64,000 nucleotides of DNA from Escherichia coli. Its GTDB lineage: Bacteria; Pseudomonadota; Gammaproteobacteria; Enterobacterales; Enterobacteriaceae. Of the stretch, positions 3,087 to 4,635 are shown in pieces. Under the pieces are notes generated by a model that saw nothing but the letters and a program-made list of their open reading frames with translations, did not search any database and was not told the origin of the DNA. The stretch lies in NCBI RefSeq assembly GCF_001677475.2, contig NZ_CP015229.1; one strand, written 5' to 3'. Position 1 is the first letter of the stretch. Each line of letters begins with the position of its first letter. Both the position numbers and the translations under genes were made by a program.

Positions 3087-4635
3087 TGCGAACCTCCCTT
3101 GCCACGCAGTAGTTGCTCATAACTGCTCAGGTTATGCTGTATCACATTGACTACCGGCAACGCCTTTTCTTTTATACCCAGGAAGCGCATCAGCCGGTGC
3201 AGATCCACGTTTCCCGGGGTATTCAGCATCTGCTCCATACCTTTTGCCACGACTGAGATATCGTCGTATCCTGCAGCCAGTTTCAGGGCATGTACCATCA
3301 GCCTTCCTGCCATATCGGGCTCCAGATGATTACATAAGCGACGCCACAGCCTCCGCCATTCATCGTCCGGCAGGATGTCATTTCTCAGCGTTGCATGGCA
3401 GAACGCACCGGGCTTTTTTGCCAGACTGTCGATCACATGTCGGAAGTCGATACGACGGGCCCGCGTCTTCCCTTTTTCTGGTCTGACGCGAGGGCAGCTC
3501 ATGACCTCGCTGCTGCCAACGTAACAGCTCAGACGATCGTCCCATAACCTGACCCGTAACAGTTGACCTACAAGCCGGGAAGGTACGCTGTAGACGACGT
3601 GCTTCACATTGATGGTACTGCTGCGACTAACCCTCACAGTCAGCTCATCATAGTCAGCACTGCGACGAAGCGGCAGCGGTTTCAGATGAAGACGTTCTTC
3701 CTTGACCAGATCCTGATTGTTACGGTTGTGCCGCATAACCTGCTGAGTGATGAAGGCCTGATATTCTTCTATGGTGCTGAAGTCGTTACTGCCCCGCAGT
3801 ATCAGCGCCTGACAGATACGCCTTTTCAGATGTCCGTGGGCACTTTCAACCGAGCCATTTTCGTGGCCCCGACCGGCATTATTGTGTACGCCCTGCATTC
3901 CGTAGTGCTGACAGAGAGTAGCATAACGCTCAGTCAGCTCGCGGCGTCCATTCCGTAGTGCTGACAGAGAGTAGCATAACGCTCAGTCAGCTCGCGGCGT
4001 CCATCTTCGCCCTGTTGTTTCCATGCTGCCCTCAGGCTGTCCGTTTTATGTTCTACCGGCACTCCGCCCAGTTGTCCGAGGGCTTCCTGCAGGCCTTCAG
4101 CCAGAGCAGAGAAGCTCTCACCACCCAGAACAACCCGCATCCAGCTCCAGTGGCTCCATTCCAGACGGAAGTGATACAACTTATGCGCCAACAACTTACC
4201 GGCGATGGTGACAACTACACCTTTCAGTTCAGTAAAGTCCGACAGGCCTCGCAGGCCGGGCTGATGTTGCTGGCGGAACATGACCTCCTGCTCTGTACCA
4301 TACTGTAGTTTCCATTCGCGAACCCGCCGTTGCATTGTTCTTCGAAGGCTGTTGGGGTACTGGCCGGGATATTTATCCTGTAGCATCTCCAGTAGAGTTG
4401 TTGGTGTCAGAGCCGGCCTCTCTTTCAACAGAGGAACAAGCATGCTGTCCCACACAGCTTCCAGAGGATCTTTGCGTGTGCGCCAGTGCCGAACACTGTT
4501 TTTTGCCCACTCTCCTTTTTCGATCCGACGACCAGAACGGACTGAGATACCAGCCTTCATGGCCGAGATATGCTGAGTTATACCTTTCTTACGCTGAGTC
4601 ATATAGTAACTGACCTGAGAAGTATTGAGCGTCAC
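3083..4635 (-). pseudogene. istA: IS21-family IstA transposase, frameshifted
   Basis: track ORFs 3934-4635 (N-terminal 233 aa) and 3083-3898 (C-terminal 271 aa) together equal the intact 499-aa IstA of copy 2; the locus is 53 bp longer than in copy 2. Confidence 0.85.
3899..4004. repeat. perfect 2 x 53-bp tandem duplication inside istA
   Basis: unit TCCGTAGTGCTGACAGAGAGTAGCATAACGCTCAGTCAGCTCGCGGCGTCCAT appears twice here and once in copy 2 (about 47350-47402); bounded by CAT microhomology. Confidence 0.85.

Follow-up and report, generated by a model that had tools for sequence, protein, structure and literature searches.

The window, the whole stretch of 64,000 nucleotides of Escherichia coli DNA analysed here, contains two copies of one insertion sequence, and in the first of them the transposase gene istA carries a tandem duplication of 53 bp. 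The locus raises the question of how this duplication came about and what it has done to the element that bears it. We regard it as very probable that copy 1 is a derived, defective ISEc10 residing on a P1-like phage-plasmid, with its istA broken by a microhomology-mediated tandem duplication. The best reading is that the duplication is private and recent, and that it made copy 1 non-autonomous.

Self-BLAST of the window returns two 2.4-kb element copies in direct orientation. Both lie on the minus strand, copy 1, which bears the duplication, at 2266-4728 (2463 bp) and the intact copy 2 at 45725-48134 (2410 bp), the boundaries being set by self-BLAST, by the ends and flanks, and by comparison with P1. 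The istA gene of copy 2 (46542-48041, minus strand) is intact and encodes 499 residues, of which 12-304 match the NCBIfam IS21 transposase model NF033546 (226 bits against a cut-off of 160; E 5e-67). A Mu-transpos_C_2 beta-barrel is found at residues 311-366. The istB gene of copy 2 (45790-46545, minus strand) represents the common allele, encodes 251 residues, and matches Pfam model PF01695, IstB_IS21, with an E-value of 9e-62. Its start overlaps the istA stop; in copy 1 the istB start is a GTG within the overlap GTGA. The IS21-type gene pair is present, with istA for a DDE transposase followed by istB for an AAA+ helper ATPase. The full 2410 bp occur at 98.5-99.8% identity in hundreds of enterobacterial plasmids (megablast, PLSDB), and near-identical elements carry the RefSeq label 'IS21-like element ISEc10 family'. 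Judged by these matches, the element is ISEc10, a catalogued member of the IS21 family. The window shares with ISEc10 the complete 2410-bp element, the 499-residue istA product, the 251-residue istB product and 6-bp target duplications; copy 1 differs by its private 53-bp duplication in istA and by one SNP in istB.

The terminal inverted repeats are imperfect, TATTAGACGTCAA... and TATGAGACGACAA.... The outer ends of the element (2266-2275 and 4719-4728), as set by copy identity together with the target duplications, are TATTAGACG... and ...CGTCTCATA. A 3' terminal CA dinucleotide is a signature of IS21-family donor ends (PMC10122671). ISEc10 appears to differ from IS5376 and IS21 in this respect, since its ends as delimited read ...CATA and ...AATA, with CA lying 2 nt inside one end and missing at the other. 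In other respects the likeness to the IstA-IstB systems of IS5376 and IS21 (PMC10122671, PMC11208146) is clear in the two-gene layout, the match to the IS21 profile, the beta-barrel after the core, and the AAA+ helper IstB. Compared with IS5376 IstA, the ISEc10 protein is longer by about 100 residues and so divergent that phmmer finds no PDB chain for it even at E-values up to 10; a search of IstA with Pfam likewise gave no rve hit.

Both copies are carried on a P1-like phage-plasmid backbone that shares about 97-98% identity with P1 and with many P1-type plasmids of E. coli. By comparison with NC_005856, copy 1 sits in pmgM, the gene for a VRR-NUC protein, after codon 8, and copy 2 sits in ddrB at about codon 737. 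Copy 1 is flanked by a 6-bp target duplication, GAAGAG (2260-2265 on the left and 4729-4734 on the right), which occurs once in P1, at about 78869-78874. Copy 2 is flanked by CCTCAC (45719-45724 and 48135-48140), which is also present once in P1. Because each target repeat is single in P1, both copies are genuine, independent transposition products. Insertion of copy 1 splits pmgM into 2242-2265 and 4729-5289 (plus strand), the next start being a TTG 76 codons downstream, and that of copy 2 splits ddrB, a gene of the darA operon, which serves P1 in defence against restriction, into 44943-45724 and 48135-50346 (minus strand).

The two insertion sites have different distributions in public sequence. 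No protein on record corresponds to the 110-residue remnant of pmgM, and ORFs that run across the copy 1 junction are too short to trace this insertion. At the nucleotide level, neither the 5,426 complete E. coli genomes nor the 72,556 plasmids contain the pmgM::ISEc10 junction. For copy 2, the ddrB::ISEc10 junction is found base-identical in six independent short-read assemblies (Logan SRR24416076, SRR3929499 and four similar contigs). Because this junction recurs in six assemblies, the copy 2 insertion is, by these searches, common to a plasmid lineage that has been sampled repeatedly, while the insertion and the duplication of copy 1 are private. The most economical order of events would have copy 1 inserting first and acquiring its duplication afterwards, in place.

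Several further features of the window may be described here. Between the two directly repeated IS copies lie about 41 kb, with the pac, c1 and lox-cre regions among them; this segment would be lost by homologous recombination between the copies, and the pair could in principle act as a composite transposon. A 2-kb non-P1 insert after pmgT contains an ORF of 221 codons with no Pfam match (11549-12214, plus strand). Between pacB and c1, non-P1 sequence at 18635-20310 (plus strand) encodes an Ash-family protein and an ORF6N/KilAC antirepressor. The segment 25657-30120, also non-P1, replaces the res/mod (EcoP1I) restriction-modification locus of P1. At 26268-29522 (plus strand) lies the gene for a 1084-residue autotransporter with an AC_1 autochaperone and an Autotransporter beta-domain, cargo of a surface or virulence type. 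Finally, 55021-55650 and 58709-59341 form an inverted repeat pair, 83-87% complementary, corresponding to the invertible C segment of P1, with its alternative tail-fibre S/Sv' ends beside cin; part of the segment is inverted relative to P1.

Direct comparison of the two copies of ISEc10 isolates the lesion. Copy 1 is longer by exactly 53 bp (2463 versus 2410 bp by self-BLAST), and with one 53-bp unit taken out a single base separates the two, G at 2411 in copy 1 and T at 45870 in copy 2, the sole SNP in the copy alignment. The identity of the copies ends precisely at the element ends on both sides. The extra sequence is a perfect tandem repeat of period 53 spanning 3896-4004, with 2.1 copies, 100% matches and no indels, as determined by Tandem Repeats Finder and by direct inspection of the sequence. 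The first unit, which starts CATTCCG and ends GGCGTC, occupies 3896-3948; the second, identical to it, occupies 3949-4001, so that the novel junction falls at 3948/3949; and a trailing CAT follows at 4002-4004. The trinucleotide CAT thus occurs in copy 1 istA at 3896, 3949 and 4002. Read on the gene strand it is ATG, and the middle one of the three encodes Met229. The microhomology is exactly 3 bp, as a G precedes 3896 and the last base of the unit is C. Copy 2 retains the state before duplication (47355-47410, by self-BLAST and folding), a single unit between two CAT trinucleotides, at 47355-47357 and 47408-47410, with 50 nt between them and an imperfect hairpin fold. An earlier note, made from the letters of the DNA, had described a head-to-tail repeat bounded by CAT in copy 1 alone, a length difference of 53 bp, and identical ends for the two copies; self-BLAST, Tandem Repeats Finder and the comparison of flanks bear out each of these points. 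A 26-nt sequence across the duplication junction has a single occurrence in the window and does not appear in any of 100 shuffles, and a perfect 53-bp tandem repeat cannot be a product of chance in 64 kb.

The consequence for istA follows from the length of the unit. A unit of 53 bp shifts the reading frame, since 53 is not divisible by 3, and translation ends four foreign residues beyond residue 229. The N-terminal fragment (3934-4635, minus strand) has 233 residues, IstA 1-229 plus DAAS, with a TGA stop at 3936-3934. The C-terminal fragment (3083-3898, minus strand) has 271 residues, IstA 229-499, and its ORF begins at the duplicated Met229 codon, 3898-3896. The division into 233 and 271 residues beside an intact 499-residue IstA in copy 2, as the same note had read it, is confirmed by the ORFs, and so is the integrity of copy 1 istB (2331-3086, minus strand), an intact ORF for the AAA+ helper, again of 251 residues. 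The PF01695 match was obtained with the copy 2 protein, from which that of copy 1 differs at one residue, Leu for Ile. Measured against NF033546, whose profile length is 294, the N-terminal fragment covers profile positions 2-216 and the C-terminal fragment 217-293. The cut therefore falls within the conserved IS21 transposase core, at profile position 216/217 of 294.

Comparison with IS5376 suggests what each fragment contains. In IS5376 IstA, the domains are HTH-1 (1-39), HTH-2 (55-104), the DDE domain (120-285) and a beta-barrel (300-355), and the catalytic residues are D124, D187 and E233 (PMC10122671). Candidate catalytic motifs in ISEc10 IstA are D133 (in SDFTEL), D199 (in KTDSL) and E246 (in GSVES), assigned from motif and spacing in place of residue-by-residue alignment with a solved structure; their spacings are 66/47, versus 63/46 in IS5376. 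On this assignment, the N-terminal fragment holds the putative HTH region with candidates D133 and D199, and the C-terminal fragment holds candidate E246, the beta-barrel and the C-terminal region. The frameshift would thus cut the catalytic DDE domain between its second Asp and its Glu, separating both Asp residues from the Glu, and would also detach the IstB-docking beta-barrel from the catalytic core. In the IS5376 system a milder truncation, IstA(1-287), which lacks the beta-barrel, substantially reduces both the stimulation of IstB ATPase activity and DNA integration in vitro (PMC11208146), and the N-terminal fragment of copy 1, at 233 residues, is shorter than the protein tested there. 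We infer that copy 1 is unable to make an active transposase. The earlier suggestion that copy 1 is non-autonomous gains strength from the position of the break inside the conserved core and from the reduced activity of the milder truncation.

Expression of what lies beyond the break is probably affected as well. The second ATG, that of Met229, lies 35 nt past the upstream stop, and no Shine-Dalgarno sequence is suitably spaced to serve it. Because of this arrangement, efficient production of the C-terminal fragment is unlikely. Copy 1 istB has probably lost its translational coupling to istA, with a reduction in its expression.

Whether the duplication exists elsewhere was examined with a 51-nt probe centred on its junction, of which normal copies match no more than 27 nt. 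None of the 5,426 complete E. coli genomes and 72,556 plasmids searched with it contains a match; a control probe for the corresponding unduplicated sequence of copy 2, run with the same settings, matches 346 plasmids. A 181-bp probe region is represented in 891 complete E. coli genome records and 158 plasmids, and among the matches listed all span 128 bp, in two pieces, which is the normal length. The exact junction is likewise absent from IMG/VR and JGI metagenome contigs and from GTDB representatives, the latter a weak test with one genome per species. The 233-residue N-terminal fragment is absent from about 15 billion proteins. Two identical 53-bp units are seen in copy 1; copy 2 and every other copy examined have one. 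In the public sequence searched, the 53-bp duplication is a private allele, found in this copy only.

Two sets of records resembled additional sightings and were set aside. The exact 271-residue C-terminal fragment is on record in three ENA metagenome contigs (L002, L003 and L004), none of which carries the junction. L002 and L003 contain a 98% variant of the element with an unrelated 4-bp insertion, and L004 starts downstream of the point of that insertion, again without the junction. The 4-bp insertion in L002 and L003, at about position 680 of the IS, precedes the 53-bp unit by about 48 bp and sits immediately before the putative second catalytic Asp; it frameshifts istA into fragments of 197 residues and the same 271 residues. 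Plasmid pOkiPb01695_1, with two places that match the probe at 100%, is F-type and unrelated to the window. In its host, the bovine isolate E. coli OkiPb01695 from Okinawa (L001 and L009), the probe region is matched at 100% in eight chromosomal and two plasmid places. Two ISEc10 copies of this strain are 99.8-99.9% identical to copy 2 over about 1.9-2.0 kb, and both of these are truncated in istB beside other IS elements.

The surrounding alleles indicate which copy is derived. The SNP that distinguishes the two copies places Leu in copy 1 and Ile in copy 2 near the C-terminus of IstB, and the Ile form of IstB is found on 308 contigs, the Leu form on 2. In the assembly collection, 145 blocks list the exact 499-residue IstA, and ten ISEc10 loci were fetched. 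Copy 2 is 100% identical over 2410 bp to six complete elements, which occupy different sites in six other assemblies; 7 of the 10 loci show a visible target repeat of their own, of 5-6 bp, and none of the ten has the duplication junction. Because it is identical to copies at different sites in six other assemblies, copy 2 is the active master form, the sequence of a recently active ISEc10 variant. Copy 1, by this comparison, is the master sequence plus one SNP and the duplication, a derived and defective form. Since its extra SNP exists elsewhere as a rare allele, copy 1 probably descends from a donor of the rare Leu sub-lineage and not directly from copy 2.

The anatomy of the repeat suggests how the lesion formed. 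A 3-bp direct repeat stands at both borders of the ancestral segment. Nascent-strand slippage between two CAT trinucleotides 53 bp apart would recopy 53 bp of istA, and is the likely mechanism. A hairpin formed by the intervening sequence may have aided such slippage by stabilising the looped-out nascent strand. For the unit together with the CAT that flanks it, the folding energy is -9.9 kcal/mol (z = -2.3), a value matched by 4 of 200 shuffles; for the other strand z is -1.8, with 11 of 200 shuffles folding as well. The hairpin gives modest support for slippage. Tandem duplications mediated by microhomology form a general class of reversible mutation and have been reported across bacteria (PMC8639346; bioRxiv 10.64898/2026.02.28.708716), and the change in copy 1 has the same form, in which a single-copy segment with a short flanking repeat becomes a perfect head-to-tail repeat, here with the gene frameshifted. 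Against this assignment, the microhomology of 3 bp has a chance expectation of about 1/64 and is under the 4-nt minimum of the S. pombe survey. On balance the lesion is probably an ordinary replication slip, recent and reversible.

Replication slippage has to be weighed against a mistake in assembly or polishing of a multi-copy repeat, in which case the true copy 1 would have a single 53-bp unit. An error of this kind would account equally well for the perfect identity of the two units, the site does lie in a multi-copy IS, where mis-mapping of reads is common, and the duplication, perfect as it is, is found in no other public sequence searched. Yet both 2.4-kb copies are resolved within one contiguous 64 kb, with distinct flanks, with target duplications of their own and with a private SNP, and this copy-specific resolution argues for an assembly supported by long reads and against an artefact. 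Typical long-read errors are short homopolymer indels, unlike a perfect duplication of 53 bp. The duplication also has a natural anatomy, with CAT microhomology and a hairpin-prone unit. We therefore rank a replication slip above an assembly error, which is the less likely of the two and, by our estimate, an unlikely source of the repeat.

Two further readings accept the duplication as real and give its products a function. In one, which we consider highly improbable, the lesion is a reversible off-switch: a stable IstA 1-229 with both HTH motifs would bind the terminal repeats of all ISEc10 copies and damp transposition or the promoter, much as truncated-transposase inhibitors do in other elements, and precise collapse of the repeat would restore a fully active element. 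The N-terminal fragment does keep the native start and the whole region that matches HTH-1 and HTH-2, which in IS5376 IstA bind the terminal repeats; IstA binding has been proposed to mask promoter elements in the ends (PMC10122671), and tandem duplications may revert at high frequency (PMC8639346). The fragment ends inside an RNase H-like fold, however, so that its stability and DNA binding are only putative, and one private occurrence, with no recurrence among about 1,000 or more public copies, gives no sign of selection. Other defective ISEc10 copies are broken elsewhere by unrelated indels, as random decay predicts. Positive evidence for an inhibitor is confined to the predicted domain content of the N-terminal fragment. 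Still less credible is a split but active transposase, in which the first fragment and a second, produced by re-initiation at the duplicated Met229, reassemble and leave copy 1 autonomous. The two ORFs jointly encode every residue of IstA, and the second begins exactly at Met229, but the spacing before that codon offers no usable Shine-Dalgarno sequence, and the break falls between the inferred D199 and E246, within the RNase H-like catalytic domain and not at a domain boundary.

If the lesion is a replication slip in a defective copy, its future would turn on the repeat itself and on the ends of the element. A perfect tandem repeat can collapse precisely, which would make the lesion potentially reversible. 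Tandem duplications can revert at high frequency (PMC8639346), and on E. coli plasmids RecA-independent replication slippage removes direct repeats of 35 and 82 bp (PMC7063769). Because short direct repeats on E. coli plasmids behave in this way, precise reversion of copy 1 to the single-unit allele would be expected by analogy. The terminal repeats of copy 1 are intact, so its transposition could still be driven by IstA and IstB made by copy 2, or by copies on the chromosome. Such mobilisation in trans is plausible, given that neither the ends nor the 6-bp target duplication is damaged and that IstA and IstB, once purified, assemble and act on separate DNA with terminal repeats (PMC10122671). 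Copy 1 would then share with other non-autonomous insertion sequences moved in trans its intact ends, its defective transposase gene and the presence of an intact element on the same replicon; it differs from them in being full-length, with a potentially reversible lesion, and not internally deleted.

The element is a known one and the mutation belongs to a textbook class. Defective insertion sequences with usable ends are commonplace, the case would not surprise a specialist, and its significance beyond annotation is small. The appropriate annotation for copy 1 is ISEc10 with a frameshifted istA pseudogene, without separate gene calls for its two ORFs. The difference of 53 bp provides a PCR marker that separates the copies and can reveal reversion or gene conversion. 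The locus offers a clean natural example of microhomology-mediated tandem duplication, with the ancestral allele 43 kb away on the same molecule, and copy 1 illustrates how an insertion sequence decays while its ends stay usable.
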